A stretch of 64,000 nt of DNA from Dictyostelium discoideum (GCA_000004695.1 CM000155.2:1120001-1184000), one strand, 5' to 3'; shown: positions 4,940-57,843, counted from the first letter of the stretch. Translations and numbers: made by a program. Notes: a model not told the origin generated them from the letters alone.

Positions 4940-5021
4940 GACATCGTAGCGAAGTGGTCTAACGCGTTTGACTTGAAATCAAATCTCCTAGGAGGCGCAG
5001 GTTCGAACCCTGCCGATGTCG
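4940..5021 (+). tRNA. tRNA-Ser (anticodon UGA), 82 nt with a long variable arm.
   Basis: GACATCG...CGATGTC+G forms a 7-bp acceptor stem. The anticodon stem is TTTGA/TCAAA with loop CTTGAAA, giving anticodon TGA. The long variable arm is TCTCCTAGGAGGC. The T arm is GCAGGTTCGAACCCTGC. Confidence 0.9.
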
Positions 5022-9629: not shown

Positions 9630-9711
9630 CGACATCGGCAGGGTTCGAACCTGCGCCTCCTAGGAGATTTGATTTCAAGTCAAACGCGTTAGACCACTTC
9701 GCTACGATGTC
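9630..9711 (-). tRNA. tRNA-Ser (UGA), copy 2.
   Basis: Exact reverse complement of the 82-nt gene at 4940-5021. About 28 bp of 5' flank (cagctataaattttgattttcatcaaag) and 49 bp of 3' flank are shared with copy 1. Confidence 0.9.
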
Positions 9712-9760
9712 TTTGATGAAAATCAAAATTTATAGCTGAAATACTATTAGAAATAGGGAG

Positions 9761-10423
9761 ATCGAAAAAAACAAACAACAACAACAATCTCTTTTTTTGA
9801 TTATTTCATTTTTCATATAAAAAAGACTTAAAAAACAAATAAATAAATAAATAAACTATTTTAAAAAGCCATCTTTTTACTTTATTGTAATTTATTATTT
9901 GTTTCGTTTTGAGAATTTTGCGTAGCAAAATTTTCAAAAAAAAAGCAAAAAATAATCAGATCGAAAAAAACAAACAACAACAACAATCTCTTTTTTTGAT
10001 TATTTCATTTTTCATATAAAAAAGACTTAAAAAACAAATAAATAAATAAATAAACTATTTTAAAAAGCCATCTTTTTACTTTATTGTAATTTATTATTTG
10101 TTTCGTTTTGAGAATTTTGCGTAGCAAAATTTTCAAAAAAAAAGCAAAAAATAATCAGATCGAAAAAAACAAACAACAACAACAATCTCTTTTTTTGATT
10201 ATTTCATTTTTCATATAAAAAAGACTTAAAAAAAAAATAAATAAATAAATAAACTTTTTTAAAAAGCCATCTTTTTACTTTATTGTAATTTATTATTTGT
10301 TTCGTTTTGAGAATTTTGCGTAGCAAAATTTTCAAAAAAAAAGCAAAAAATAATCAGATCGAAAAAAACAAACAACAACAACAATCTCTTTTTTTGATTA
10401 TTTCATTTTTCATATAAAAAAGA

Positions 10424-10480
<57 letters not shown>
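9761..10480 (+). repeat. Tandem repeat of ~198 bp (A-module-like unit), 3 full copies plus a ~70 bp partial copy ending in A~55.
   Basis: Units begin at 9761, 9959, 10157 and 10355 with (G/C)AGATCGAAAAAAACAAACAACAACAACAATCTC.... The copies are almost identical. Confidence 0.85.
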
Positions 10481-10559: not shown

Positions 10560-11894
10560 ATGAAAATCACAAACAACACCACAAATATTAAGCAACACAA
10601 ATGCCTACAAAAAATAAGCGAAATTGTGGATAAAACTCAATTAAAAAAAAAACAATTCAAATACGTCATAAACATCAATCACGAACCAGACGATAAAATA
10701 AAAAAAGATTTAGAAAAAAGTTTGGACAAAAAAGATGTTTTAATCAAAAGTAATAATACATTCAAAATTCTCACAGACAGTATTAGTACAGTAATCTATT
10801 TTGTAAATATGTTTGATGCAGAATTAAAAGGACAATTTATAACCACTATAAGACCAAAAAATATGTATACAGATTTTGATTGGTATAAATCACTCACAGA
10901 AATAGAATGGGTAATAGAAAATGAAGGATGTAAACTAATTAAATCAGAAATTAAAGGCGAAACTCTAATTATCAAAACAGTGAAAAGAGTCGTAGAAGAA
11001 TTTGACACTATCATTGAACTAGACAATCTAACATTAATTGGACACTCCAACAAAGGATGGAGAGATCAAACCTCATTACCAGAAAATCAAGAAGAAAACA
11101 AAAATAAAAAACAATCAGATGAACAACAACCACAATCTACATCAGAACAAATACCAAAACAAGGAAAAAGAACAATCATTATCCCACCAATCACATCCTC
11201 ATCTAATGATAAAACATTTATGGCCCTAGATGATACAGCTCAAAAGGTAATAGAAGCATCACTAGAAAACGTAGATGAACTAACAAGAATAGAGAATGAG
11301 ATCAATACACAATCGATAAACAATCAAGAAATTAAAACAAAATCAGAAAAACCTATCGAACCACCATCTCCATACAATACACCAATAAAACAACACGGCG
11401 AAACAAAGGGACTAACAACGGAAGAAAAACTTAGAGAGGCAAATGATATCTTCGACTTCACCAGCCCAAACACTGATGCAATAAGAAAAATAGAATTCCC
11501 ACTTTCAATCCCTTCAAATCAATGGTTCTTCTCCTCTCCAATAAAACATATCATGAGTTTCAGCCCAACCTATGGTACACCATCGAAAATTATCGATTCA
11601 CCAAGTAAATTGTTAAACACACCAAAAAAGAAACAACAAGACAAAACAAACAAGACCAACAAAACACCAGTCAAACCAAAATTGGGTGAATATGGACAAA
11701 AAAGCATAAAAACAAAAATGGATGAAGATATAGACAACTTCAACAAGGAAATTCTAAAACAAATCAATAAATCAAAAAACCCCACAAACACACAAGACCA
11801 ACAACACAATGAACAAAGTAAAGATCAGTTAGAAGACAAAATAAACCAGAAACTTCAAAAGGTAGATAAAAATCTACCCCAAATAAAACTATAA
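10560..11894 (+). CDS. Retrotransposon ORF1 protein, 444 aa (~51 kDa), Ser/Lys/Gln-rich.
   Basis: Continuous ORF lying between the A-module repeats and an ORF2 start (IRIGVWNVQGSNT...ALLTETN, an apurinic/apyrimidinic (AP)-endonuclease N-terminus) at 11900-12190. Its size matches the ~51 kDa ORF1p reported for TRE5-A (established knowledge). Confidence 0.6.
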   Translation: MKITNNTTNIKQHKCLQKISEIVDKTQLKKKQFKYVININHEPDDKIKKDLEKSLDKKDVLIKSNNTFKILTDSISTVIYFVNMFDAELKGQFITTIRPKNMYTDFDWYKSLTEIEWVIENEGCKLIKSEIKGETLIIKTVKRVVEEFDTIIELDNLTLIGHSNKGWRDQTSLPENQEENKNKKQSDEQQPQSTSEQIPKQGKRTIIIPPITSSSNDKTFMALDDTAQKVIEASLENVDELTRIENEINTQSINNQEIKTKSEKPIEPPSPYNTPIKQHGETKGLTTEEKLREANDIFDFTSPNTDAIRKIEFPLSIPSNQWFFSSPIKHIMSFSPTYGTPSKIIDSPSKLLNTPKKKQQDKTNKTNKTPVKPKLGEYGQKSIKTKMDEDIDNFNKEILKQINKSKNPTNTQDQQHNEQSKDQLEDKINQKLQKVDKNLPQIKL

Positions 11895-40194: not shown

Positions 40195-40758
40195 CTTTCT
40201 TCCCTACAGGCTAGTGCATTATTATGGTTAGACTTCAAAGTTGTTGTTTGGGGTACTTGGAATTCTGATCTTATGTGTAAAGTTTGTATGGGTCAAATTC
40301 CAATGGATTCAAACTATATTTTCTCACGTTACTATGGTGTTAGAGCAACTCCACCAACTTTAATTGGTGGTATTCTTCGTAATGAAACTGATGCTTGGTT
40401 CACACCATATTGTAATAACCCAGCTTCACCATACTATGTTAAACCAAAATGTGCATGTTACAACTCAACTTCACCATTGGTAATTAATCAAGTCTCTTCC
40501 TCTACTTGGTATGAAGGCCCAAACAACACCAAATACAGTCAATTCGATGGTAAAATCTTAAACAATGCTAATTACGCTGTTAACAATCCAACTTTCACAT
40601 CCTCACCATCAGGTGTTAAACCACGTACTATTTGGGGTTTAAAGAATGAAGGTGGTGATATTTGGTCATTATCATATTACCCAGTCATTAGCGGAAATGG
40701 TGGAGCTTTCCCATTTGGTTATATTAGCACTCAAGAAATTACCTTTAAAGCTAATTAA
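39633..40758 (+). CDS. Secreted CDA/TadA-fold zinc deaminase with a novel Cys-containing C-terminal domain, paralog 1. Exon 1 is 39633..40073 and exon 2 is 40210..40758. The intron donor reads TTAAGT instead of GTAAGT. As it stands the sequence encodes only a 154-aa deaminase-domain protein, ending with the stop at 40095-40097.
   Basis: Signal peptide MKLIISLLILICTLKLSFG. Helix-1 HEHRMAYILAISK. Zinc ligands HGEVAAINNC ...(28 aa)... YTTGEPCAMC, i.e. the [HC]-[AGV]-E ... PCxxC CMP/dCMP/tRNA-adenosine deaminase signature. Several N-glycosylation sequons are present. Exon 2 begins ASALLWLDFKVVVWG, the continuation of the PCxMCxxAllw helix. It is in frame only if the 136-nt TT...AG interval is removed. 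Confidence 0.6.
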
Positions 40759-40867
40759 TTATTTATTACCAATTAAAAAGTCTTACCGACTTTATATAAT
40801 CATAAAAAAAAAAAAAAAAAAAATTAATCCGAATAAATTAATAAAAAGTAATACCTTTTTGTTCACA

Positions 40868-41160
<293 letters not shown>

Positions 41161-41453
41161 TAATATCTTAACTTCACTATTTGGAGGTGAAATTTTACCA
41201 ATTGTTGGGGTAACATCTGGCTTAGTAAATGGAGCAATCGAAGGCTTTACAAAGGGGGTTTTTAATTGGTAATTTAATTTAATCTACAAATAACTAACCA
41301 ATTCTCATCAATATTTTGGACTGAAAAAAAAAAAAAAAAAGAAAATCTATTGAAATAGTAAAAATAATTGGAGAATTGGAATATTAAAAAAAGTAATATA
41401 AAAAGTATTTAATTAAATATAATAATAAAAAAAAAATCCGCATTTTTTATATT

Positions 41454-41990
41454 TTATTTAATATAAAGAGATATAATTAACATAAGTTTATGCAGTTGGT
41501 TGGAAAGCAATTTGGTCTTCACCATCGATGATGTAACCGAATGAGAAGGTTTGACCTGTTGGATGACTGGATACCATTGGAGAGCCCAAGTATTTTTGGT
41601 TTCATCAACAGCAAGACCCCAGATTGAGTTTGGACGGAGTGGAGATGAGGTGAAGGTTGGGTTGGTGACGGTTACTGAACCAGTGTTGGTGATGATACCA
41701 CCGAATTGAGAGACAGTTTTACCGTTTTCGAACCATGAGGAGTAAAGAGTTTGATCGATCTTTAATGGTGAAGTAGTGTTGGTACAGACACATTGTGGTT
41801 TAATGTAATAGATTGAAGTTGGTTTGCTACAGTATGAACCGAAACAGGCGTCAGCTTCAGTACGTAAGACACCACCGATAACTCTTGGTGGGCTAGCTCT
41901 TAAACCATAGTAACGACCCAAGATGTATGAGGAATCCATTGGGATGTTTGACATTCAGATTTTGCAAAGTAAATCACTGTTGAAGGTACC
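41454..41990 (-). pseudogene. Truncated, frameshifted 3' copy of the deaminase gene, C-terminal domain only.
   Basis: Identical to 56701-57240 apart from a 1-bp deletion (cctgttgg here versus cctggttgg there) that shifts the frame (...WYPVIQQVKPSHS). The homology breaks at 41990. The shared 3' flank is AAAATCCGCATT...ATAAGTTTATGCAGTTGG. Confidence 0.8.
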
Positions 41991-43269
41991 CCAGACAATG
42001 TGCTGAATGGTCTATTCGTGCAAACCGGGTAATAAAAGGTATTTTTTTTAAAAAAAAAAATGGACTACATGGGCTGAACTGTTTATTAGTGCCAACCGGG
42101 CTGATACAAGGTTTTTTTTTTTTTAAAAAAAAATAAATTGACTGCAAAGATTGACTGATAAAAGGTTTTTTTTTTAAAATGGGCAAAAATAAGGTTTTAA
42201 ATTTTTGATACGGACTGCACGGGCTAATCGAGATAAAAAAAAAAATATCACACTGACTACAAATTATTTTTTTAAAATAAAAAAGGACTACACAGGCTTA
42301 TAAAAAGGTTTTTTTTTAAAAAATTAAAAAAAAAAAAAAATAAAAACAATAAAAAAACGATAAAAACATTACAATTTTTTAATTTTTTTATTTTTTCTTT
42401 TTTAAATGTATTTAAAAAATAAAATATATTTAATAAGAAAATATGAATATATTGTTTGAGACTTTGCAAAAAAAAAAAAAAACCTGAATGTATGTAGTAT
42501 TTTTTATTATTAATTTTTATTTTTTTTTATTTTTATTTTCTGGAAAATTAAAATAAAAAATCACTTTGCATATTATTTTAAGTTTTGTATTATTAATAAA
42601 TAAATAAATTATTTTACATTCTTATTTAGGAGAAAACCAATAAAATAAAAAATAATAAAATGAAATAATAAATAACGTTAATTTTTTTTTTTTTAGGTAA
42701 TGTGTGGTAAATTTTGAAAAAAAAATAAAATTTAATTAAAGTAATAACTAACAATTTTACATTTATATTTAGGAGTTTAAATCAAAAAAAATGAAATTAA
42801 AAATAATCAAATTAATAATATTAATAAATAAATAAAAAAAAAAAAAAAAAAAAAAATAAAATTACCGCATTATTTCATTTTTATTATTTTTTATTGAATA
42901 CTTTTTTTTTAAAAATAGATGGTTTTTTTAAAAATATTTAAGCCCACGTATATCCTAAAAAAACCTTTAAATAAATAACCGTTTCAAAAAAAGACGGTTA
43001 TTTATTTAAATATCTAAAAAAATAATTTTGTAAGGGCTGTACTCAACCCTTTAAAGTGCTGTACGGGCTATGCCCAAAATTAAAAACTTTGAGCACAACC
43101 CGCACAGCACTCTTAAGTGTTGCGCACAGTCCTTACAATGTTTTTACAATTTTGTTTGGGCTGTTGGGGCTTATAGTGCCAAAGTTAAAATTTTTCTCAG
43201 TGGTCGTGTATCTTTTTATATATATATGTTTTACAATTGAACTATACCAGATTATTTAATTTATCTAAT

Positions 43270-44220
43270 TGTTAGCTGGTTGTAAAGAAATACCTTCTAA
43301 TAATTCTTCATTTTCATCGGTATAATCGACCAAGTCCAAACCAATTTTATTACTCTTGTCTTTATGAATTTGTTTTTTACATGAACGTTCAGTTCTGATA
43401 GCTTCAAAATACTTTGATAATATTAGTACTGCTAATGATGCTTTATTTTTATAGGTGGAACTAAAAACATTCTTTACAATACTAAGTTTGCTCTAAGGTG
43501 TAACATTTCTTGAATTCCCAGAATCTTTTTTTAATTTTAAACCTTGCTTTAAAGGTTGATTTTGAATTTGTTTACATGTTGCAGTGATACCATGATTTGA
43601 TAATAATTTATCTCTAATAGTTGATACACTTGGATCATCTTCAAATAATTTTTTTAAATGGAGTTGATTGGTTTCATCCCATAATTGATCACCAATAAAT
43701 TTAAAATTTGGAAGTTTAGTTAAATTATAGTTTCTTCCATCAACCAAAGTTGTGAAGAATTTTGATTAGCAACATTTTCCATCATTTGTGGTCTGTTAGC
43801 ATATGCAAAGAGAGCAGTTACAAAAAGATTTTCTTGATGCATGTCCCATGCTTGGCCAACCTTAGTACCATTATTAAATTTAACCTCTTGCAAGATTGGA
43901 ATTTCTTTCTTGGCACCTTCTATTCTGTCAACAAAACTATTAACTTGAGTACTATTAATGTTGATACCAGAGCACTTCATTTCAACAGAGGTATGAATAA
44001 TTTCCACCATGCATGACGAAGGCTTTAACAAAGGCTTGGATTGATGGCAAACTCCAGAGATATGCATCTTTGCCAGAGTAAACAAGTTGGCAGATACTTT
44101 GATAGAATGAGAACATTCGGTTATCGAAATTTAACTTTCCTTCAGGTTGTTGAATACCTTCACACAAATTATTAGGAATTAAACTAATATTTGGATTATC
44201 AAAAGTACTAAAATCAACAA
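43270..44220 (-). pseudogene. Degenerate copy (multiple frameshifts) of the 345-aa gene at 50735-51772.
   Basis: ORF fragments 43493..43747, 43720..44085 and 43982..44167 each align to successive parts of the 50735-51772 protein (KLPNFKFIGDQLWDETNQLHLK..., GTKVGQAWD.HQENLFVTALFAYANRPQM, CEGIQQPEGK). A T~110 homopolymer lies upstream at 44222-44350. Confidence 0.75.
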
Positions 44221-44257
44221 AATGAACATTTTTTTTTTTTTTTGAAACATATTTATT

Positions 44258-44352
<95 letters not shown>

Positions 44353-44565
44353 TTTACATGTATGTTTATTTATTTATTTATATTTATTTATTATTATATT
44401 CATTTGAAACCTTTTATTCATTATATTTTTTTTTTTAATAAATTATAGATATTATATATATAGAATACTATGGGTAAAAGGAAATAATAATGTTTGTTTG
44501 TAGTTGAAAATATTAAAATTAAAAATAAAAAAAAAAATATAACAAAAAAGATTTTATTTTAATAA

Positions 44566-44606
<41 letters not shown>

Positions 44607-45562
44607 CTTAAAATTTTTTTTTAAAAATTGTGTTTTTATATTTTCCAAACATACTTCATTTAAGGGGGGTCAGATTTACAATCATTTTAAAGGAATGGGG
44701 TTATAAATTTTCTTAAAATAATATTTTAAAATATCTTTGAAGTTAAACATATTTATGTATTTATATAATGATACGATTAGTTTATCAAAATGTGTTTGGT
44801 TGTTTATTATTATAATTGGTTGTTTATTATTATTATTATTTTTTTTAATTAATTACTGCATTTCTTTATTAGATTTAATAATAGTTTAGAAATAATAAAA
44901 TAATATATAAAAAATAAAAAAAAATAATATTAGTTGAAATAATAAAATTTTATATGGTATAATAAATAATTAAATAGTTTGAAATAATATATTAGTAAAA
45001 TTAAATAGTAAAATTAAAATAATAATTTGATACATATATTATTTTATAGATAAATAGTTCAATCATTGAAATAATAACAACAACAACAATAATAATAATA
45101 ATAATTATATATATATCATATTAATAATTAAAACTAGTTTGAAATTAATGGTAATTTAAAGGTTGATATAAATAAATTCAAAAAAATTTGTATGTATTAT
45201 TTTAGTTACTACCTACTACTTTTAAACATGTTGTATTAACATTATATTCAAATTTTTTATTACAATTCCTATAGATACAACTGTCTTTGATAAAAACATT
45301 TCACCTCAAATTAGTAAGTATTTTATTTTTATTATAGTATAGGTAACACTAGCGTTATTCTACAACTTTTTATATATTAACCTTGATAATAAATAATTCT
45401 TTAATCCGATTACTATAAAGATGAAATTTTAGATCTATTTGAATTTGGTATGTTTTAAATTTTATTATTATTATTTATAATTGCAATTATTAATTCTCAA
45501 CATTGGTGTATTAATATAAATTCAATAATTATTTAGATACTACAAAATCATCATATGAAGAT

Positions 45563-46070
45563 GTGATTGAAGAATACAGTAAATTTGAAAATGATTCTCT
45601 TGGATCATTTGAATATCTTGATTACAGTGATTTACGTTTATTATCTAAAAGAAAGTGGAATAATAAAGAAGCTTTAATCATAGGTAATGGTAAAAGTAAT
45701 TATAAAACAACTGTACAAATAAAAGGTGATTTGTTAGATAAAGGTTATTTTAGAACTGAACTTGCTATTGATACATAGTTTGATAGAAATAAGTATTAAT
45801 AAATAAAATGGTTAAAAATTTTAAAAGTACTCAAGAAACCATCACCAGTCATTTCAAGAAATTGGAGTCCAGATGAACAAAAAGCATTAATGGTTGAAGT
45901 TTCTACACTTGGTAATAAATCTGAAATCAACTGGTTTTTCATTTCTCAACAACTCTTTTTAAAAGGTATTAGTAGAAATGCAAGAGAATGTCAAAGAAAA
46001 CATGAATCAATCCAATATGTTGGTCTTTCAGGTAATCCAAAAGCTAAATTTAAAGGAACTTTTGATTAGT
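45563..46070 (+). pseudogene. Disrupted copy of the Myb/SANT-like gene at 53788-54303.
   Basis: Same N-terminal sequence (IEEYSKFENDSLGSFE). A stop follows ELAIDT, and there are frameshifts through the SANT-like region. Confidence 0.7.
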
Positions 46071-46359
46071 TTGTCATATATTTTAAATAAATAACATCTT
46101 CAATATAAAAAATTTCCAATAATTTTATTTTCTTTTTTTTTTGTTATTGATAGTACTTATAACAAAAAATGAATGATAAATAATTAAATTCTAAAAATAA
46201 AATTTTTGATTTAAAAAATAAAATAAAAAATTCAAAAAATAGAATGATTACACGGTGTTTATGATAATAATTTTTTTTTTAATTTTAAAAATTTTTTTAT
46301 TTTAATTTTTAATTTTTTTTTTTATTTTTTTTACCAATTCCAGTCTGTAAACAACATTC

Positions 46360-46790: not shown

Positions 46791-47970
46791 TAAATAATAA
46801 AAAATGAATTAATAATAAATTGTAAAGATAAAAAATTAAATAAATTTAATAATAATGAAATTAGAGTAGTATGTTTGCATTCTAATGAATCGATGTATTG
46901 TTGATATGTTAATCTTGATAATGTATAGGTTTTCAAAATTGTCATCCTTGCTATTGTGATCGCTTGACTTTTCCATTTGCTAAGATTATCTTTGATTGCT
47001 GTCAATTTTGAATTTAAACCTATTTTGGTGAAATTGAGACCTAAATATCTTTCTGGTGCATCGCTTAATTTGAATGGTAACCTTGGAGGTATGTCCCCAA
47101 TTACCATCAGGAAATCCCAAATACTTAATTCGGTTACTTATTTTAAATATGGAGTTAATATTTTGAAAAACTCTATAAATTGGATCATCTGGTAGTTGTG
47201 TTGAAGCAGTAGTGGTATTTGCAGTTGGTTTGTTTAAATTAAAAGTTGTTGGAGTATTTGAGGTTTGACCAACTGAATTATGGTTAGCAGAATTAGTATT
47301 GGTGGTGTTACAGGTAGCCATTATTTGATTAAAAATTTAAAATAATTATAAAAAATAATTTTACAATAAAATGAAAAATTTAATTTGTTATTAATATATT
47401 ATTATATTATTGTATATTAAAAAAAGATTGATTATTATTTTTTTTCAGAACCAATTAAAAAAGTACAAATCAGGTGGTAGTATTAACCAATTTGTATTTC
47501 ATCAGATGAAGGAGAATCATCAAACAAATATGATAATTATGATGATTATGAATCAGTCCTTAATCACCAATTTTACTAAAAAAGATGTTCCAACACAATA
47601 CCAACATTATTTGATAATACTAATTCAAGCAAATGCCCTGGTGTTTTTTTTCCAATACTTCAAATTTAAAACTTTATCGAAAATAATATTCGTTAAATTA
47701 TTAAATTAAGTAATATTACCATTTGAGCCTTAAAAAACACAATAGGTATTATCATCTTTGAAAAGTAAAAACATCCCTGCACAAACTGGGATATACAATT
47801 TAAAAAAAAAAAAACATTTTAGCTTTTTCTTGTAATTAATTTATTTTGTTATTTTGTATTATGTTTTGTATAAAAAGAAATTCCAAAAATAAAAAAGTTA
47901 TTCCAAAAAAAAAAATCGGCGTTGTTGTTTATATTTTATTTAATATAAAGAGATATAATTAATTATAAGT

Positions 47971-48477
47971 TTATGCAGTTGGTTGGAAAGCAATTTGGTC
48001 TTCACCGTCGATGATGTAACCGAATGAGAAAGTTTGACCTGGTTGGATGACTGGATACCATTGGAGAGCCCAAGTATTTTTGGTTTCATCAACAGCAAGA
48101 CCCCAGATTGAGTTTGGACGGAGTGGAGATGAGGTGAAGATTGGGTTGGTGACGGTTACTGAACCAGTGTTGGTGATGATACCACCGAATTGAGAGACAG
48201 TTTTACCGTTTTCAAACCATGAGGAGTAACGAGTTTGATCAATCTTTAATGGTGAAGTAGTGTTGGTACAGACACATTGTGGTTTAATGTAATAGATTGA
48301 AGTTGGTTTGCTACAGTATGAACCGAACCAGGCGTCAGCTTCAGTACGTAAAACACCACCGATAACTCTTGGTGGGCTAGCTCTTAAACCATAGTAACGA
48401 CCAAAGATGTATGAGGAATCCATTGGGATGTTTGACATACAGATTTTGCAAAGTAAATCACTGTTGAAGGTACCCAT
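47971..48477 (-). pseudogene. Second truncated 3' copy of the deaminase gene (C-terminal domain, frame intact, no deaminase exon).
   Basis: Near-identical to 56701-57210. The homology breaks at about 48476 (gaaggtaccca|tcttataag), and Trp is replaced by an ATG at the breakpoint. More than 170 bp of shared 3' flank (47800-47970 versus 56530-56700). Confidence 0.8.
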
Positions 48478-49191
48478 CTTATAAGACCAATTAATTCCAA
48501 TGTGGCTTCATCTGTTGCAAATCGATTTTCATTTATTAACTCTTATAATAATCTATCAAAAATTAATAAAATTTCTTTTTTTTTAACATATTTTAAAATT
48601 ATTTATTAATTTTTAATAAATTTTATTATTAGTATTATTTTTTTAATATTAAAATTATAAATAAATGATTAATAAATTATTATTATTCACTAAATAATAT
48701 TATTTTTTGATTAATAAATAATTTCTATAATAAATAAGGAATATATTATTTGAAAAAAAATAAAAATTCTTATATTTTAAAATTTTTTATTTACACCCAT
48801 TATTTTTTATCATTTTATTATAGTTTTTAATAATATATAATATCATATTGTAACTCAAAAATATCTTGTTTATACTAATATTTATTTAATTTTATGAAAT
48901 GTTCTAAATAGAACATTTAAAAATAACTATTAATATTGAATTAATAATTCAATATTAATTATTGCTAACTTAATTTATTTTAATAAATTGTTTCATTTTA
49001 TATAATAAACTCACTAAACACAACTAAATAATAATTCAAAAATAAATAATAATAATTTAGAATATAGTTTTGTTTCAACATTTTATTATAACACATACAA
49101 TTCAGAAAATAATAATAATTTATTTTATTGTTTTGTTTAAAGGGGTTTTCTCCCGTTGTAATTAAATTTAATTAATTTTAAATTTAATTTT

Positions 49192-49233
<42 letters not shown>

Positions 49234-49414
49234 TTAATTTGAATTTCACAAAAGTTTTCATAATAGATATTAGATACCAGATATTAAAAATGTCACACAA
49301 AATCACCATATAAAATAATAATATAAATTTAAAAATAATTTAATTAAAAAGAAAATAATAATTAATTAGAATAAAATTAAAATAATATAATATTGTAGTT
49401 TAAATTGGATCTAA

Positions 49415-49542
49415 CCCTATCGGCTGAGGTTGGAGTAGTTAACAGATTTGAGTCTGCTCAAATCTGAGGACTATAAAAGGAAACTAGGTTTCTAATTCAA
49501 CCTCAGTAATAAATATATACAAATAATAAAAACGCGATAGGG
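49415..49542 (+). ncRNA. Candidate structured RNA or MITE-like nested inverted repeat (~128 nt), copy 1.
   Basis: Outer stem CCCTATCG/CGATAGGG. Inner stem CTGAGGTTG/CAACCTCAG. Internal hairpin CAGATTTGAG-TCTGCT-CTCAAATCTG and GAAAC-TAG-GTTTC. Duplicated at 54876-55000. Confidence 0.35.
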
Positions 49543-49701
49543 CTACGGTCATTAATTAAATACATGTGTACATTTATTTCTTAAATAATTAATCATTTAT
49601 TTTAATAATAAAATAAATAAATTGAATAATAATAAAACAATAAATAAAATTAATAATAATAAATAATCAAATTTTATTAAATAATTTATTAAAAAAAAAG
49701 A

Positions 49702-50070
49702 ATGTCAACTAATAATAATAATAACAACAATAATAATAATGAAGATATTGATAATGATGAATTGCAACAACAGGATAATGAGGAACAACAACAACAACCA
49801 CAGGTATCAACTTTCAATGAACAGCAACGTCAAATAAGGGAACAGCAACAGGTAATAGATAAACAAAATCAACTTCTTCAACAACACATTCAATTAATAA
49901 ATCAACAATCTCAACAACAATTAAATAACCATTCGACACCACCATCATCACCCAACATTACAACACCAATAACTTCAGCAGCAATAACCAACACAATAAA
50001 GAAATCATTAGGAAAAATTAACACTGATGACACCGACCACCAGTTGTTACACATATATGATAAACTATAG
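49702..50070 (+). CDS. Small poly-N/poly-Q protein (122 aa).
   Basis: MSTNNNNNNNNNNEDIDNDELQQQDNEEQQQQPQVSTFNEQQRQIREQQQVIDKQNQLLQQHIQLINQQSQQQLNNHSTPPSSPNITTPITSAAITNTIKKSLGKINTDDTDHQLLHIYDKL. A rearranged second copy lies at 55163-55688. Confidence 0.45.
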   Translation: MSTNNNNNNNNNNEDIDNDELQQQDNEEQQQQPQVSTFNEQQRQIREQQQVIDKQNQLLQQHIQLINQQSQQQLNNHSTPPSSPNITTPITSAAITNTIKKSLGKINTDDTDHQLLHIYDKL

Positions 50071-50734
50071 TTTTATGTTTTAAAAAATGAGAAATTACAA
50101 TAGTATTATTTCCTATTAATTGTTGTATATTATTAAATTATAGGTTTATGTTTTAAAAAATGAGAAATTACAATAGTATAATTTCTCAAAATATGGTAGA
50201 TAAATAAATTTTTTATAGTTTAATGACAAATTAATATTCAATTTTAATTAAAATATTATTAGATTTTATCAATTTTTAATTTATATTAAAATATATTTTT
50301 ATTATGGCCAGATTCTTTTTTATTATTTTATGATAATTTAATAATAAAGTGTGATTAATTATTAATTAGAAATTAATATTAGTTTGTTATAAATTTTATT
50401 AAATTATAATATCATTTCTTAAAATATAAGTTTTTGCGGGTTTAATTTCTCACAAAATAGTAAAATTTCTTAGTTTTTTTTCTCTGGTGAAATAAAATAA
50501 TATAAAATAAAATAAAATAAAATAAAACAAAATAAAACAAAACAAAACAAAACAATTTGAACCCATTTCATCTTCTAAATACACGAAAATTAAAATAAAA
50601 AACACATGTGTTGCAACACTTTTTTTTTTTATTACTTTTTTTATTATTTTTTTTATTATTTTTTTTTTATGATCTTTTTATATATATATTTTACAATTTT
50701 ACTATTCTATAATACCAGATTATTTTATTTAGAT

Positions 50735-51769
50735 CTAATTGCTAGCTGGTTGTAAAGAAATACCATCTAATAATTCTTCTTCATTTTCATCGGTATAATC
50801 GACCAAGTCCAAACCAATTTTAATACTCTTGTCTTTATTAATTTGTTTTTTACATGAACGTTCAGTTCTGATAGCTTCGAAATACTTTGATAATATTAGT
50901 ACTGCTAATGATGCTTTATTTTTATAGGTGGAACTAAAAACATTCTTTACAATACTAAGTTCTTCTTTGCTCCAAGAGGTAACATTTCTTGAATAAGTAG
51001 AAACTTTTTTTAATTTTAAACCTTGCTTTAAAAGTTGACTTTGAATTTGTTTACTTGTTACAGTGATACCATGATTTGATAATAATTTATCTCTAATAGT
51101 TGATACACTTGGATCATCTTCAAATAATGTTTTTAAATGGAGTTGATTGGTTTCATCCCATAATTGATCACCAATAAATTTAAAATTAGGAAGTTTAGTT
51201 AAATTATAGTTTCTTCCATCAACCAAATTTGTGAAGAATTTTGGACTTAAATTATAACCATTTAAATGAAAAATGTTGCTAATCATTTGTGGTCTGTTAG
51301 CATATGCAAAGAGAGCAGTTACAAAAAGATTTTCTTGATGCTCGTCCCATGCTTGGCCAACCTTAGTACCATTATTAAATTTAACCTCTTGCAAGATTGT
51401 TGGAATCTCTATCTTGGCACCTTCTATTCTGTAAACAAAACTTTTAACTTGAGAACCATTAACGTTGATACCAGAGCACTTCATTTCAACAGAGGTATGA
51501 GTTTTATTTCCACCATGCATGACGAAAGCTCTAACAAAAGCTTGGATTGATGGCAAAGTCCAGAGATATGCATCTTTGCCAGAGTAAACAAGTTGGCAGA
51601 TACTTTGATAGAATGAGAACATTCGGTTATCGAAAAAAAATAATACCTTTCCTTCAGGTTGTTGAATACCTTCACACAAATTATTAGGAATTAAACTAAT
51701 ATTTGGATTATCCAAAGTACTAAAATCAACAACATGAACATTTTTTTTTGTTTTTGAAACCTTTTTACT

Positions 51770-51772
<3 letters not shown>
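50735..51772 (-). CDS. Hypothetical 345-aa protein with a C-terminal Myb/SANT-like segment.
   Basis: Intact ORF. The C-terminus reads TSWSKEELSIVKNVFSSTYKNKASLAVLILSKYFEAIRTERSCKKQI (W-x...-RxxxxCxxQ SANT-like pattern). The degenerate paralog is at 43270-44220. A poly-T lies upstream at 51775-51820. Confidence 0.5.
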
Positions 51773-51821
<49 letters not shown>

Positions 51822-52607
51822 TTAATAAATTATTGATATTATATATATATAATATTATGGGTATAGTTGAAAATATGAAAATTAAAAATAAAAAAAAAAT
51901 ATAACAAAAAAGATTTTATTTTAATAACAAAAATAAAAAAAAAAAAAAAAAAAAAAAAATCTTAAAATTTTTTTTTAAAAATTGTGTTTTTATATTTTCT
52001 AAACATACTTCATTTAAGGGGGTCAGATTTACAATCATTTTAAAGAGATGGGGGGTTATAAATTTTCTTAAAATAATATTTTAAAATATCTTTGAAGTTA
52101 AACATATTTTAAAATAATATTTTAAAATATCTTTGAAGTTAAACATATTTATGTATTTATATAAATATATATAATGATACGATTAGTTTATCAAAATGTG
52201 TTTGGTTGTTTATTATTATAATTGGTTGTTTATTATTATTATTTTTTTTTTTTTTAATTAATTACTGCATTTCTTTATTATTAGATTTAATAATAGTTTA
52301 GAAATAATAAAATAATATATAAAAAATAAAAAAAAATAATATTAGTTTGAAATAATAAAATTTTATATGGTATAATAAATAATTAAATAGTTTAAAATAA
52401 TATTAGTAAAATTAAATAGTAAAATTAAAATAATAATTTGATACATATATTATTTTATAGATAAATAGTTCAATCATTGAAATAATAACAACAACAACAA
52501 CAACAATAATAATAATAATTATATATATATCATATTAATAATTAAAGCTAGTTTGATAAATTATTATATATTAGCATATTAAATAAAATTAATAATAATT
52601 TATAAAA

Positions 52608-53354
52608 ATGGATGAACCTTCAACAGATAAAATTTTAATTGGTGCTCAAATCATTACAACAGTTATAACATTGTTCACTGGTGTTTTTGAATTTATTATT
52701 GCTGCAAAAAGCAAAATGAAAAGAATGAAAAGTGAACAAATGTTTTCAGTAAATCAAGATGGATTAATACATATTATTAAATCACTATTACCAGGTCGTA
52801 ATATAATTTTCATCAGCAATGCACCAACCAGCACCACAGATCCATCATTCAACAGCCAGACAATGAAAAACTTTTTAAAAGTAATATTTAGATTACTACC
52901 GTTTTTCATTGGTGCTGTCTTTATACATTTAAATATAATACCGTTTCATCATTTAATTATTTTTACTGAAAATGGTAAATGGTACTTTGATAGTATACAA
53001 GAAGAATTAATACCTATTGTAAAAGAAAGATTAAAGCAAATAATGTCATCTCAACCTGATGTCATATTTGCATGTGGTGCTGTGGTAAGGGATATATTTT
53101 ATATGTATCTTGAAGAAGGTTCAATTGAAATGGTTGGTAATAATATATTCGTGTATATAAATAAAGATGGTACGAAAAAAACTATTATTTGTTTTGTTCC
53201 ACACTTTTGTACTCGTAAAGATCATTGGAAGTTTATTGCTCAAGGATTATTATTTATTCATACTCATTTCAAATTATCAACATTCAATACAAATTATTTT
53301 GAAAAAAACAAACCAGAAATTAATTTTAAAGATATTAGATATATAGTTCTTTAA
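52608..53354 (+). CDS. Hypothetical 248-aa protein with an N-terminal TM helix. It is encoded inside an ~0.8 kb copy-specific insertion flanked by a 9-bp direct repeat.
   Basis: Intact ORF. 52557-53364 is absent from the paralogous block at 45130-45145. CTAGTTTGA occurs at 52548-52556 and 53356-53364. Confidence 0.45.
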   Translation: MDEPSTDKILIGAQIITTVITLFTGVFEFIIAAKSKMKRMKSEQMFSVNQDGLIHIIKSLLPGRNIIFISNAPTSTTDPSFNSQTMKNFLKVIFRLLPFFIGAVFIHLNIIPFHHLIIFTENGKWYFDSIQEELIPIVKERLKQIMSSQPDVIFACGAVVRDIFYMYLEEGSIEMVGNNIFVYINKDGTKKTIICFVPHFCTRKDHWKFIAQGLLFIHTHFKLSTFNTNYFEKNKPEINFKDIRYIVL

Positions 53355-53787
53355 ACTAGTTTGAAATTAATGGTAATTTAAAGGTTGATATAAATAAATT
53401 CAAAAAAATTTGTATGTATTATTATTTTAGTTACTACCTACTACTTTTAAACATGTTGTATTAACATTATATTCAAATTTTTTATTACAATTCCTATAGA
53501 TACAACTGTCTCTGACAAAAACATTTCACCTCAAAGTAGTAAGTATTTTATTTTTATTATAGTATAGGTAACGCTAGCGTTATTCTACAACTTTTTATAT
53601 ATTAACCTTGATAATAAATAATTCTTTAATCCGATTACTATAAAGATGAAATTTTAGATCTATTTGAATTTGGTATGTTTTAAATTTTATTATTATTATT
53701 TATAATTGCAATTATTAATTCTCAACATTGGTGTATTAATATAAATTCAATAATTATTTAGATACTACAAAATCATCATATGAAGAT

Positions 53788-54303
53788 GTGATTGAAGAAT
53801 ACAGTAAATTTGAAAATGATTCTCTTGGATCATTTGAAAATCCTGATTACAGTGGTTTCCATTTATTATCTAAAAGAAAGTGGAATAATAAAGAAGCTTT
53901 AATCGTAGGTATTGGTAAAAGTAATAATAAAACAACTGTACAAATAAAAGGTGATTTGTTAGATAAAGGTTATTTTAGAACTGAACTTGCTATTGATACA
54001 TACTTTGATAGAAATAAGGTATTAATAAATAAAATGGTTAAAAATTTTAAAAGTACTCAAGAAATTATAAAACCATCACCAGTCATTTCAGGAAATTGGA
54101 GTCTAGATGAACAAAAAGCATTAATGGTTGAAGTTTCTACACTTGGTAATAAATCTGAAATCAACTGGTTTTTCATTTCTAAACAACTCTTTTTAAAAGG
54201 TATTAGTAGAAATGCAAGAGAATGTCAAAGAAAACATGAATCAATCCAATATGTTGGTCTTTCAGGTAATCCAAAAGGTAAATTTAAAAGAACTTTTGAT
54301 TAG
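53788..54303 (+). CDS. Myb/SANT-domain protein, one exon of a multi-exon gene. The displayed ORF starts at an alternative GTG start.
   Basis: GNWSLDEQKALMVEVSTLGNKSEINWFFISKQLFLKGISRNARECQRKHESIQ is a SANT/Myb repeat. Upstream, DEILDLFEF is followed by a GTATGT donor at about 53675 and a tatttag acceptor at about 53762, and it splices in frame (DTTKSSYEDVIEEY...). No in-frame ATG lies immediately upstream. Confidence 0.55.
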   Translation: MIEEYSKFENDSLGSFENPDYSGFHLLSKRKWNNKEALIVGIGKSNNKTTVQIKGDLLDKGYFRTELAIDTYFDRNKVLINKMVKNFKSTQEIIKPSPVISGNWSLDEQKALMVEVSTLGNKSEINWFFISKQLFLKGISRNARECQRKHESIQYVGLSGNPKGKFKRTFD

Positions 54304-54641
54304 TTTGTCATATATAAATAAATAACATATTCAATATAAAAAATTTCCAATAATTTTATTTTCTTTTTTTTTTTTTATTGATAGTACTTTTAACAAAAAA
54401 TGAATGTAAATAATTAAATTGTAAAAATATAATTTTTGATTTAAAAAATAAAATAAAAAATTCAAAAAATAAAATAATTACACCGGGTGTCTAATTTGAA
54501 TGTTACTATTAATAATTTTTTTTTTAATTTTAAAAATATTTTTATTTTAATTTTTTATTTTTTTTTTTATTTTTTTTACCAATTCCAGTCTGTAAACAAA
54601 ATCATTAAATACTTAATTAATTTTAAATTAAATTTAATTTT

Positions 54642-54686
<45 letters not shown>

Positions 54687-54875
54687 TTTGAATTTCACAA
54701 AAGTTTTCATAATAGATATTAGATACCAGATATTAAAAATGTCACACAAAATCACCAAATTTATATATTTTATAAAATAATAATATAAATTTAAAAATAA
54801 TTTAATTAAAAAGAAATAATAATTAATTAGAATAAAATTAAAATAATATAATATTGTAGTTTAAATTGGATCTAA

Positions 54876-55000
54876 CCCTATCGGCTGAGGTTGGAGTAGT
54901 TAACAGATTTGAGCGAACTCAAATCTGAGGACTATAAAAAGAAACTAGGTTTCTAATTCAACCTCAGTAATAAATATATACAAATAAAAACGCGATAGGG
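54876..55000 (+). ncRNA. Candidate structured RNA or MITE-like nested inverted repeat, copy 2.
   Basis: Same stems as 49415-49542. The internal hairpin loop differs (CAGATTTGAG-CGAAC-TCAAATCTG) while the pairing is preserved. Confidence 0.35.
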
Positions 55001-55162
55001 CTAGGGTCATCAATTAAATATATGTGTACATTTATTTCTTAAATAATTAATCATTTATTTTAATAATAATAAAATAAATAAATTCAATAATAATAAAACA
55101 ATAAATTAAATTAATAATAATAATAAATAACCAAATTTTATTAAAAAAATTTATTTTAAAAG

Positions 55163-55688
55163 AATGTCAACTAATAATAATAATAACAACAATAATAATA
55201 ATGAAGATATTGATAATGATGAATTGCAACAACAGGATAATGAGGAACAACAACAACAACAACCACAGGTATCAACATTCAATGAACAGCAACGTCAAAT
55301 AAGGGACAGCAGCAGGTACTAGATAAACATTACCACAAGTAAATACATTGTCATATCTTGTTGAACCACACCACATTGTCTATTTTCAGTGGTCTTTCCA
55401 CAACGACAGATGGACTTGTTTTTAACTTACATGATCCACATGGACCAGTAGACAACGATCGTGTAACAACTGGTGGTCGGTGTCATCAGTGTTAGTTTTT
55501 CCTAATGATTTCTTTATTGTGTTGGTTATTGCTGCTGAAGTTATTGGTGTTGTAATGTTGGGTGATGGTGGTGGTGTCGAATGGTTATTTAATTGTTGTT
55601 GGGATTGTTGATTTATTAGTTGAATGTGTTGTTGAAGAAGTTGACTTTGTTTGCAAAATTCATGAATGTTGTCCAAGCACACCAACAC
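55163..55688. pseudogene. Second copy of the poly-Q gene, broken by an internal inversion.
   Basis: The 5' half is on the + strand (MSTNNNNNNNNEDIDNDELQQQDNEEQQQQQPQVSTFNEQQRQIRDSSRY*). The 3' half (LLQQHIQLINQQSQQQLNNHSTPPPSPNITTP...TDDTDHQLLH) is encoded on the minus strand (55422..55688) and fused to DRCLLVHVDHVS, which is homologous to 46390-46430. Confidence 0.7.
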
Positions 55689-55894
55689 ATGATGAAGCAG
55701 GTAACCAAGATTGTATAATTTATACTAGATTTTCTTCACTCGATCTAAATTCACAAGAATATGCAAATAAATTACAAATTGAGCCATTACAGTCTATATC
55801 AATAGTATCACCAAAAACTATTAAAAAAATTGAACCAATCCTTATAAAGATTGTAAGTAGTAGTAGTAATAGTAGTAGTAGTAGTAGTATTTAA

Positions 55895-56012: not shown

Positions 56013-56700
56013 ATAATATATAAAGAAAACAAACAATTAAATATTTAATTGATTCAATTCAATTATTTTAATTCAAATGGAACTATCAAATGAAATATAG
56101 AGAAAAGAAAGCATTAAATAAAATTTTTTAAGAAATCATCTTATCAAATACCATCACTAAGATTAAGTGAAACTGTTGGAATAGGTACATCAGGTAATAG
56201 TTCAAGTAATAGTATCAACAATAACAACAGTAGTAATGGCCAAAATTATGCATCCATTAAGTCCAATTCGTTGTGGTGGTATTAATAATCAAAAACAACC
56301 AAAATTAGAAGTTTTATCACCTGCTTTATTATTTAGAGAATTTTAGAAATTTAGATTCAATTTTAATATACCTCTCAAATTAAAATCATTTTAATCAATA
56401 TGATCCATCCATGTTTTATACAACTAATAATATTAATAATGAATCTACTAAAAGACACAATCAACAAAATTAAAATCATTGACTGTTTTTAGTAGATAAA
56501 ATCATTTTTAAAAGATTGTTGGTGAAAAAAAAAAAAAACATTTTAGCTTTTTCTTGTGATTAATTAATTTATTTTGTTATTTTGTATTATGTTTTGTATA
56601 TACAAAAAGAAATTCCAAAAATAAAAAAGTTATTAAAAAAAAAAATCCGCATTGTTGCTTATATTTTATTTAATATAAAGAGATATAATTAATTATAAGT

Positions 56701-57335
56701 TTATGCAGTTGGTTGGAAAGCAATTTGGTCTTCACCGTCGATGATGTAACCGAATGAGAAAGTTTGACCTGGTTGGATGACTGGATACCATTGGAGAGCC
56801 CAAGTATTTTTGGTTTCATCAACAGCAAGACCCCAGATTGAGTTTGGACGGAGTGGAGATGAGGTGAAGGTTGGGTTGGTGACGGTTACTGAACCAGTGT
56901 TGGTGATGATACCACCGAATTGGGAGACAGTTTTACCGTTTTCAAACCATGAGGAGTAACGAGTTTGATCGATCTTTAATGGTGAAGTAGTGTTGGTACA
57001 GACACATTGTGGTTTGATGTAATAGATTGAAGTTGGTTTGCTACAGTATGAACCGAACCAGGCGTCAGCTTCAGTACGTAAGACACCACCGATAACTCTT
57101 GGTGGGCTAGCTCTTAAACCATAGTAACGGCCAAAGATGTATGAGGAATCCATTGGGATGTTTGACATACAGATTTTGCAAAGTAAATCACTGTTGAAGG
57201 TACCCCAGACAATGGTTTTGAAGTCAGCCCACAAAAGAGCAGCTGAGCACATGGCGCATGGCTCTATAGGAGTTTGTTAGTTGTTCAATTGATTGATCAC
57301 ATGATCATTCATTATTATTTTTTAAAAAAATAAAA

Positions 57336-57395
<60 letters not shown>

Positions 57396-57843
57396 AGTAT
57401 TTGTAGATTAAAACATTATTATTACATATTAATTACTTACCTCCAGAAGTGTAAAGAGTGTAGTTGGTGAAAGAGGTGATACCGTGTAAAGCAGTACAGT
57501 TGTTGATGGCAACGATTTCACCATGTGAAATGATATTTGGTTTACCAGTGTTGACACCAAGACACATTAAAGTACCATTTTGGTGGTAGATTGAAGCAAC
57601 GAATTTCTTATTTTGTTGTTTGGCGATGGCAAGGACGTAAGCCATACGTTCTTCGTGCATACCTAATTCTTGTGGATCGAGATCAGCTGGAGTGAGAACT
57701 TGAGCATTGTCGGTTGGTTTCCAGCTTACTTTTTGAGTGGCTGTACATTCACCGATGGTTGAAATGTTTGGATTGAATTCATCGCATGCAAATGATAATG
57801 CAATAAATGCGAGTAAAATAGTTAATAATAAAGCAATCTTCAT
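56701..57843 (-). CDS. Secreted CDA/TadA-fold zinc deaminase with a Cys-containing C-terminal domain, paralog 2 (intact). It has 2 exons: 57843..57441 and 57263..56701 (321 aa).
   Basis: Signal peptide MKIALLLTILLAFIALSFA. HEERMAYVLAIAK. HGEIVAINNC...YTLYTSGG|EPCAMCSAALLWADFKTIVWG spans the intron, with a GTAAGT donor in phase 1 and a cctatag acceptor. The C-terminal domain is NSDLLCKICMSNIPMDSSYIFGRYYGLRASPP...CSKPTSIYYIKPQCVCTNTTSP...WYPVIQPGQTFSFGYIIDGEDQIAFQPTA. Confidence 0.8.

Follow-up and report, generated by a model that had tools for sequence, protein, structure and literature searches.

The window analyzed here, a 64,000-nucleotide stretch of the Dictyostelium discoideum genome (GCA_000004695.1 CM000155.2:1120001-1184000), contains two copies of a nested hairpin, referred to below as the module, at positions 49415-49542 (copy A) and 54876-55000 (copy B), both on the + strand, which had been noticed in a preliminary description as a candidate structured non-coding RNA (ncRNA) or miniature inverted-repeat transposable element (MITE). 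We report that the module is, with high probability, an internal part of a low-copy, recently mobile element of approximately 1.0 to 1.2 kb, and that the motif occurs twice in the window because the element is present as one complete (A) and one truncated, partly inverted (B) insertion. The complete copy covers positions 48849-50051 (1203 bp, + strand) and includes an open reading frame (ORF; 49702-50070, + strand) that starts 160 nt past the module. The copies used for comparison are designated L004 and L005 (D. discoideum, same assembly as the window), L011 (D. discoideum, another assembly), L006, L008, L009, L010a and L010b (D. cf. discoideum) and L012, a decayed copy.

Module copy A, as delineated from its sequence, RNA fold and consensus fold, has an 8-bp outer stem, CCCTATCG/CGATAGGG (49415-49422/49535-49542), which is followed inwards by helix 2 (49423-49434/49496-49507), the 6-bp lower part of helix 3 (49435-49440/49469-49474), hairpin 1 with a stem of 10 bp (49443-49452/49457-49466) and a 4-nt loop, TCTG (49453-49456), and the 6-bp hairpin 2 (49479-49484/49488-49493). 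The string TATAAAAG is located at 49472-49479, while 27 nt of the 3' strand (49508-49534) are A-rich and unpaired. This agrees with the outer stem, inner stem and two internal hairpins originally described, except that the inner stem, CTGAGGTTG/CAACCTCAG, is included in a helix 2 that is longer than claimed and reaches 12 bp when G.U pairs are counted. Folded as + strand RNA, the minimum free energy is -47.2 kcal/mol for copy A (z = -7.9) and -47.4 kcal/mol for copy B (z = -8.8; this copy was delineated from sequence, fold and comparison with other copies), and in both cases none of 200 shuffled sequences was as low, the shuffle mean being approximately -20 kcal/mol compared to about -47 kcal/mol for the module. 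The - strand RNA of copy A gives -39.3 kcal/mol, and with DNA parameters the z-scores are -7.6 (+ strand) and -6.3 (- strand). The identity between the two modules had been put at more than 95%, which is not clearly so: it is 93.75% over 128 columns with a 3-nt indel included and 120 of 125 positions when the indel is excluded. Only one of the differences affects a paired position, G.U vs A-U at the base of hairpin 2. That the GC-rich arms contrast with AT-rich surroundings was borne out, with a GC content of 0.36 for the module and 0.19 for the remainder of the ~1.2 kb unit; moreover, CCCTATCG is found four times in the window, every time in a module, with 0.13 occurrences expected.

Alignment against L004 and L005 showed that the homology between loci spans ~1.2 kb and halts sharply on both sides, such that copy A begins with TGTAAC... 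and ends with ...CCAGTTGTTACA. The element ends, TGTAACAAGATCTC...TTGTTACA, are of the TGT...ACA type. Specifically, the left end reads TGTAACAAGATCTCA... and the right end ...(C/T)A(G/T)TTGTTACA, giving an 8-bp terminal inverted repeat (TIR), TGTAACAA/TTGTTACA, the right half of which is at 50044-50051 (+ strand) in copy A. The left terminus (48849-48875, + strand) has the family consensus TGTAACAAGATCTCAAAAATATCTTGTT, which contains a small palindrome, AACAAGAT/ATCTTGTT, and in copy A a 6-nt deletion joins TGTAAC directly to TCAAAAAT.... Copy A is flanked by CATAT on the left (48844-48848) and on the right (50052-50056), and the seven complete copies, from four assemblies, all have perfect 5-bp target-site duplications (TSDs), each of them different: CATAT in the window, AGTTT (L004), AATTG (L005), ATTTA (L011), AAATA (L009), ATAAA (L008) and AAGTA (L010a); the probability of a chance match is ~0.003 per 5-mer site. 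Sharp limits of homology in combination with different 5-bp TSDs represent the signature of a mobile element, and sharp ends with a TIR and TSDs of fixed length that differ between insertions are as in cut-and-paste TIR transposons. A non-autonomous TIR element is accordingly the probable carrier and is favored over a solo long terminal repeat (LTR), which we consider unlikely and return to below. On comparison of the copies, which come from D. discoideum and D. cf. discoideum, the element comprises several subfamilies with long and short forms of the module.

Each of the 11 copies examined has the module within the ~1.2 kb unit, between homologous flanks; it lies 528-659 bp from the left end of the element and, at every fetched locus, just 5' of a relative of the ORF, and is thus not restricted to a local duplication. 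The statement that the AT-rich flanks are duplicated together with the structure therefore holds in so far as these are homologous, but A and B are members of a dispersed family and not a simple local segmental duplicate. From left to right the element is composed of the left terminus, an AT-rich stretch, a run of A residues (A37 at 49193-49229, + strand, the position of which is conserved in all subfamilies), the module, a poorly conserved AT-rich spacer of 93-159 nt up to the ATG, and the ORF. In copy B the 5'-truncated part (54604-55329, + strand) corresponds to 49161-49865 of copy A, and the 3' part is inverted (55461-55652, - strand; homologous to 49861-50052) with the right terminus at 55462-55469. 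This inversion of the last 190 bp truncates the copy B ORF, and on the opposite strand the inverted part is fused into a predicted ORF at 55562-55894. The start of copy B, 54604, is at the exact right edge of another duplicated block (50672-54602). Copies A and B are 92% identical and B has some states in common with L005 and not with A; judging from the sequences, B is not a recent copy of A. The possibility that A and B are the two LTRs of one element was rejected, since A has its own TSD and B is truncated, and the intervening 4.5 kb has no reverse transcriptase or integrase matches and is duplicated elsewhere without the units. Scanning 168 kb with a covariance model revealed no module copies outside the element, and a metagenome scan with the arm pattern gave a single match, a chance one in a bacterial coding region.

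The ORF encodes 122 amino acids (aa) as read in the window, with 116 codons within the element. No stop codon occurs before the right terminus, and the frame continues across it into the flanking DNA, so that the protein of each copy has a different, flank-encoded tail. The product is N/Q-rich with a conserved C-terminal ITNTIKKxL...DDTDHxLL, and in every copy that retains the ORF start the module is upstream of ATGTCAAC. Relative to a D. cf. discoideum copy, dN/dS is about 0.23 overall and 0.40 for the C-terminal part with dS between 0.7 and 1.3; hence, the ORF is under purifying selection and the compared lineages are well diverged. No significant domain, rve included, was detected in a Pfam search. 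In an exhaustive HMMER search among 1.84 billion representatives the ORF family had only 11 members, all ≤330 aa, and those with a source name are all from D. discoideum or D. cf. discoideum; one match of the ORF is on contig JBTAPE010000034.1 (assembly GCA_054883475.1). A literature search for DDB_G0271474, which is the element copy on chromosome 2 of AX4, returned no results.

The strongest conservation in the module is found in its arms. When the sequences 5' of the ATG were aligned for eight copies (decayed L012 and L005 not among them), the two longest invariant runs are 19 nt each and correspond to the arm blocks: GATCTAACCCTATCGGCTG (49408-49426, + strand), i.e. the left arm with its unpaired flank, which is identical in all 8-9 aligned copies representing four subfamilies and two species, and AATAAAAACGCGATAGGGC (49525-49543, + strand), the right arm with its unpaired flank, identical in eight aligned copies; L005 differs 5' of the right arm, where it has ATAAAATCACGATAGGG. 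The third-longest invariant run, TATAAAA (7 nt), is also within the module. That the unpaired flanks are invariant argues for sequence-specific recognition beyond the formation of a helix. With respect to structure, helices 2, 3 and 4 are kept among subfamilies that are 23-27% diverged: L011, with a unit that is 77% identical, has the same fold (-37.9 kcal/mol), as has the long-type L010b (-49.8 kcal/mol, z = -8.5), in which hairpin 1 is a perfect 14-bp stem of different sequence, GTAGTTGCAGATCT-AGAGAG-AGATCTGCAACTAT. The helices are maintained in most subfamilies and the long-form hairpin in three long subfamilies, and for the decayed L012 the fold has z = -0.5. In a model-guided alignment of the seven long copies, 96.2% of the cells are paired and five pairs have changed on both sides, a number equalled by 3 of 500 shuffles, with 0-1 for slid controls; the covariation score is 0.102 vs 0.078 (reached by 9 of 500 shuffles), and RNAalifold predicted the same structure. 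Taken together, our data make it highly probable that the module is under selection.

The preliminary description had singled out a compensatory difference in hairpin 1, with loops of 6 and 5 nt (TCTGCT and CGAAC). The real difference is 4 nt, TCTG in copy A vs CGAA in copy B (54914-54917). As none of these four bases takes part in pairing, the term compensatory does not apply. Among the other copies the loop is TTCG in L004 and L005, CTCG in L011, CTTG in L012 and AGAGAG in L010b. The copy A loop is thus two substitutions away from the TTCG of the family, and GAGCGAACTC of copy B is the exact reverse complement of GAGTTCGCTC in L004 and L005, i.e. an inverted family loop; in keeping with an inverted loop, the covariance model matches copy B at 54897-54934 on the minus strand as well. 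Inversion of a loop between perfect inverted repeats is a classical signature of quasi-palindrome template switching, and a flipped loop is what one would expect intrastrand template switching or intramolecular recombination to produce. The copy B loop is accordingly a DNA-level flip between perfect inverted arms, probably caused by template switching or by recombination between the arms, and provides no evidence for RNA pairing. Small hairpin-loop inversions of this kind are alike in having a reverse-complemented loop on an unchanged stem, and they account for the difference between A and B only, not for the existence or conservation of the module.

There is also an asymmetry between the strands. 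The + strand fold is 5-8 kcal/mol better than that of the - strand in every long copy apart from the decayed L012, and two G.U pairs are shared by all seven long copies with two more present in five of these, while A.C and C.A are found as singletons only, in L004 and L012. The stability of the + strand and the G.U asymmetry favor the ORF-sense strand as the one that folds, although we regard it as somewhat doubtful that the + strand RNA is the folded form that matters.

Considering these data we suggest, at a probability of roughly 0.45, that the module is under selection and serves the transposon as a control element in cis, located in the promoter or in the 5' leader of the ORF and probably folded on the + strand. 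The conserved TATAAAAG and the position 93-159 nt upstream of the ATG of a constrained ORF are the reasons for preferring control in cis, and that the module acts on ORF expression, as promoter or leader, is proposed only tentatively. It would be a control element of the transposon's own transcription unit, in which the invariant arms might constitute sequence-specific protein-recognition sites brought together by pairing, and the variable inner helices might act as an evolvable structural spacer that folds on the ORF-sense strand, either in an RNA leader or as an extruded hairpin.

Several observations weigh against this proposal. Covariation is sparse: the covariation term of RNAalifold is ~0, and the five two-sided pair changes come from only two sequences, L010b and L012, in an alignment fitted by the model, and two-sided changes in a DNA palindrome can arise through template switching without selection on the RNA. 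The outer stem never varies and is therefore uninformative on pairing. Three stem substitutions in close D. discoideum paralogues are uncompensated (C7>A in L005 and two in L004), and in the young D. discoideum subfamily 9 of 128 module columns vary, so that conservation does not exceed that of the neighboring segments. Helix 3 and hairpin 1 are missing from the short D. cf. discoideum subfamily (L006, L008, L009 and L010a), which differs by 42 nt bounded by CTGAG direct repeats and retains the arms, the CTGAG/CTCAG base of helix 2, TATAAAA and hairpin 2; hairpin 1, the feature emphasized at the outset, is consequently dispensable. The short copies show no strand asymmetry, and in the long copies the G.U asymmetry reflects some four inherited events (roughly p = 0.06). 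Finally, TATAAAA-like strings are common in a genome with 80% AT, and a transcript beginning ~30 nt past TATAAAAG would lack the hairpin and contain just the 3' half of the module.

The invariance of the arms can be accommodated in a different way if these are internal sites for a transposase or host factor, e.g. a transpositional enhancer or synapsis site, with the hairpin being irrelevant or incidental. The best-kept sequences of a non-autonomous element should be those needed in cis, and besides the termini these are the arm blocks; conservation of the unpaired flanks together with the arms points to recognition of sequence over pairing, and AGATCT is present in the left terminus, in the flank of the left arm and twice in hairpin 1 of L010b. 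Beyond AGATCT, however, the arms barely resemble the termini and have no similarity to the right end, and the two-sided changes in the inner helices and the strand-asymmetric G.U pairs are left unexplained, making a DNA-level transposition site unlikely in our view. The G.U pairs on the ORF-sense strand, and a long, stable hairpin kept in three long subfamilies, would instead suit a small-RNA precursor in which stacked helices 2 and 3 (28-33 bp) of a + strand transcript are cut by DrnB/RbdB to ~21-nt RNAs that silence the element or serve as microRNAs (miRNAs), as with thug-S, and miRNA hairpins borne by transposable elements have precedent in D. discoideum (PMC4894637, PMC6161686). We consider such a precursor rather improbable: hairpin 2 forms a 21-nt branch on its 3' arm, an atypical feature in a Dicer substrate, the short subfamily is entirely without helix 3, the module sequence was not found in the supplement of the 2018 miRNA catalogue or among the miRNAs of PMC4894637, and this reading gives no reason why the arms and the unpaired flanks should be invariant. 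The same applies to a solo LTR with the module as its U3/R junction (TATA box, start site and AATAAA poly(A) signals in the A-rich 3' strand) and the ORF leaving the 3' end as the start of gag, as in yeast Ty1. TG...CA ends, an inverted repeat of only 8 bp, 5-bp TSDs, TATAAAAG and AATAAA in the center of the unit and an ORF without a stop codon inside it are all as expected for an LTR, but inspection of the locus flanks of the 11 copies revealed no two units enclosing an internal gag-pol region, no protein >330 aa with the N-terminus of the ORF was present among the 1.84 billion representatives, and known D. discoideum LTRs are 208-390 bp (PMC5006619); an LTR identity is improbable on these grounds.

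The two explanations put forward at the outset fare worse. For a free-standing structured ncRNA gene or an independent MITE speak the strong fold and the 8-bp inverted repeat CCCTATCG/CGATAGGG that bounds the 128 nt as terminal repeats would. A mobile element is indeed involved, but not with the 128-nt unit as the MITE: this unit has no TSD of its own (its flanks read GATCTAA... on the left and ...C(T/C)A on the right), its surroundings are always homologous and it was never found outside the ~1.2 kb unit. As for an ncRNA gene, there was no Rfam match at E≤10 on either strand of 49300-49700 and no tRNA at the locus according to ARAGORN, and both alternatives are largely refuted. Using Rfam 15 at the gathering threshold, only three tRNA-Ser genes were detected in the window and none of the hits was at the module. 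Inspection by eye was likewise negative for a hammerhead core (CUGANGA...GAAA), for which stem II and the cleavage triplet do not fit, for box C/D (no RUGAUGA) and for the Dictyostelium upstream sequence element (DUSE) of Class I RNAs, where the sole candidate is a DUSE-like string (7/8) that lies ~120 nt upstream and is differently spaced between copies; the resemblance to the A and B boxes of RNA polymerase III is weak, no T-run terminator precedes 49603, and the short subfamily lacks the A-box region. A full-text literature search with 13-15-mers from the module gave only unrelated human primer and miRNA matches. An incidental palindrome, that is a functionless rider on the element kept perfect only through DNA-level template switching, would be in line with the loop flip in copy B, which indicates that DNA-level hairpin events happen here, as well as with the uncompensated stem substitutions in young copies and the covariation term of ~0. 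Yet the arms vary neither among subfamilies nor from D. discoideum to D. cf. discoideum, and the helices are kept; the two 19-nt blocks with their unpaired flanks have remained unchanged at a synonymous divergence of 0.7-1.3, and since template switching cannot conserve unpaired flanks we find this explanation very improbable.

Among described elements, the unit resembles Tdd-4, Tdd-5 and the Ginger elements in its ends, since these have 5-bp TSDs and TGT...ACA termini (TGTNR pattern; PMC2836005). Compared by description only, Tdd-4 and Tdd-5 (Ginger2/Tdd) are like the present unit with regard to 5-bp TSD, TGT...ACA ends and host species, but they are 3.8 kb with TIRs of 145-297 bp and an integrase-like transposase, whereas the unit is ~1.2 kb with an 8-bp TIR and a 116-aa N/Q-rich protein without a Pfam domain. 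It consequently shares the TSD and termini of the Ginger2/Tdd group and lacks the long TIR (about 50-300 bp) and the rve transposase. At L004, positions 1-1556 hold the 3' end of an element encoding rve (integrase core), with repeated CACTACGCTACTGTAGTG palindromes and ending ...TTCCCTACA, which is possibly a Tdd-type autonomous element and as such a candidate mobilizing partner. A DDE_Tnp_1/DDE_Tnp_4 (PIF/Harbinger-type) transposase gene is located at L006 6891-8538, 1.3 kb upstream of the D. cf. discoideum copy, with no link established. In L008 and L010 (D. cf. discoideum) the copies reside within clusters of retrotransposon genes (RVT_1, RNase H and tyrosine recombinase), in agreement with reports that elements in Dictyostelium tend to insert into one another.

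The transposon thug-S is likewise a small Dictyostelium DNA transposon with an ORF and an internal hairpin (PMC4894637, PMC6161686). The two are probably not the same, as the published miRNA_can_D3 matches a different element in L004 (1930-3910) and not the ~1.2 kb unit. This other element has palindromic ends, CCCATGCCAAAATTA...TAATTTTGGCATGGG, one mismatch from miRNA_can_D3-5p and -3p (PMC4894637), and is probably thug-S-like; the connection between miRNA_can_D3 and thug-S is drawn here and is absent from that paper. The solo LTRs of Skipper and DGLT-A/H3R are similar to the unit in having TG...CA ends, a short TIR and a 5-bp TSD, with TATA and AATAAA in the interior. The unit exceeds all known D. 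discoideum LTRs three- to sixfold in length, is not tRNA-associated and no full-length partner was found; length and tRNA association exclude the Skipper and DGLT-A LTRs as the carrier, and H3R, being a DGLT-A solo LTR upstream of tRNA genes, is also different. Combining these comparisons with the structure of the module, one may envisage an undescribed family moved by an integrase-type enzyme that needs only the 8-bp TGT...ACA ends, with the module as a new transposon-borne structured RNA. Two invariant 19-nt protein-recognition arms would here be clamped by an evolvable three-way hairpin, and the module RNA would control the expression or processing of the element transcript, possibly as a branched Dicer-like substrate. 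We regard this combination as unlikely. The module is a conserved, probably unannotated part of a small Dictyostelium transposon and no new RNA class, and its function is what we infer.

Several further features were noticed elsewhere in the window. The three tRNA-Ser(UGA) genes are identical (4940-5021, + strand; 9630-9711 and 13095-13176, - strand), the first two being within a 158-bp inverted duplicate (4913-5070/9738-9582), and the large ORFs beside them (5152-7540, 8211-9524 and 10560-11894) may be tRNA-targeting retrotransposons. A tandem repeat with a period of ~199 bp and copies that are 97-98% identical covers 9751-10452, a 1.6 kb direct duplication (83% identical) is present at 14416-16058 and 16875-18459, and a long (TAT/ATA)n microsatellite at 40646-41272 yields poly-Tyr or poly-Asn, depending on the strand that is read. 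Fragments of a CBM49 (cellulose-binding) gene occur as three 97%-identical copies (41427-42000, 47802-48475 and 56526-57214), the third of which adjoins a cytidine-deaminase-like ORF (57433-57843) and is annotated together with it as one 321-aa gene. Finally, 43210-46357 and 50672-54602 constitute a mosaic duplication (85-94% identical) with an ORF of 345 aa (50735-51772, - strand) that has no Pfam match and a gene for 457 aa (52608-54303, + strand) with a weak Myb-like match.

A 2017 review (PMC5633606) notes that detailed studies on the expression and cellular control of the DNA transposons of Dictyostelium are lacking. What was a candidate ncRNA or MITE is now a defined small mobile element with exact ends and TSDs and a conserved internal module; should the family be identical to the catalogued DDT-S or thug-T, the novelty is limited to the analysis of the module. 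For genome scans in general, it illustrates that GC-rich palindromes in AT-rich genomes can be the cores of transposable elements, and that loop differences between copies can be DNA-level flips and not covariation. For Dictyostelium, the element represents a second candidate, after thug-S, for a transposon-borne hairpin that feeds the RNA interference machinery, and the module provides a compact and testable cis element in which the two invariant 19-mers are the evident targets.

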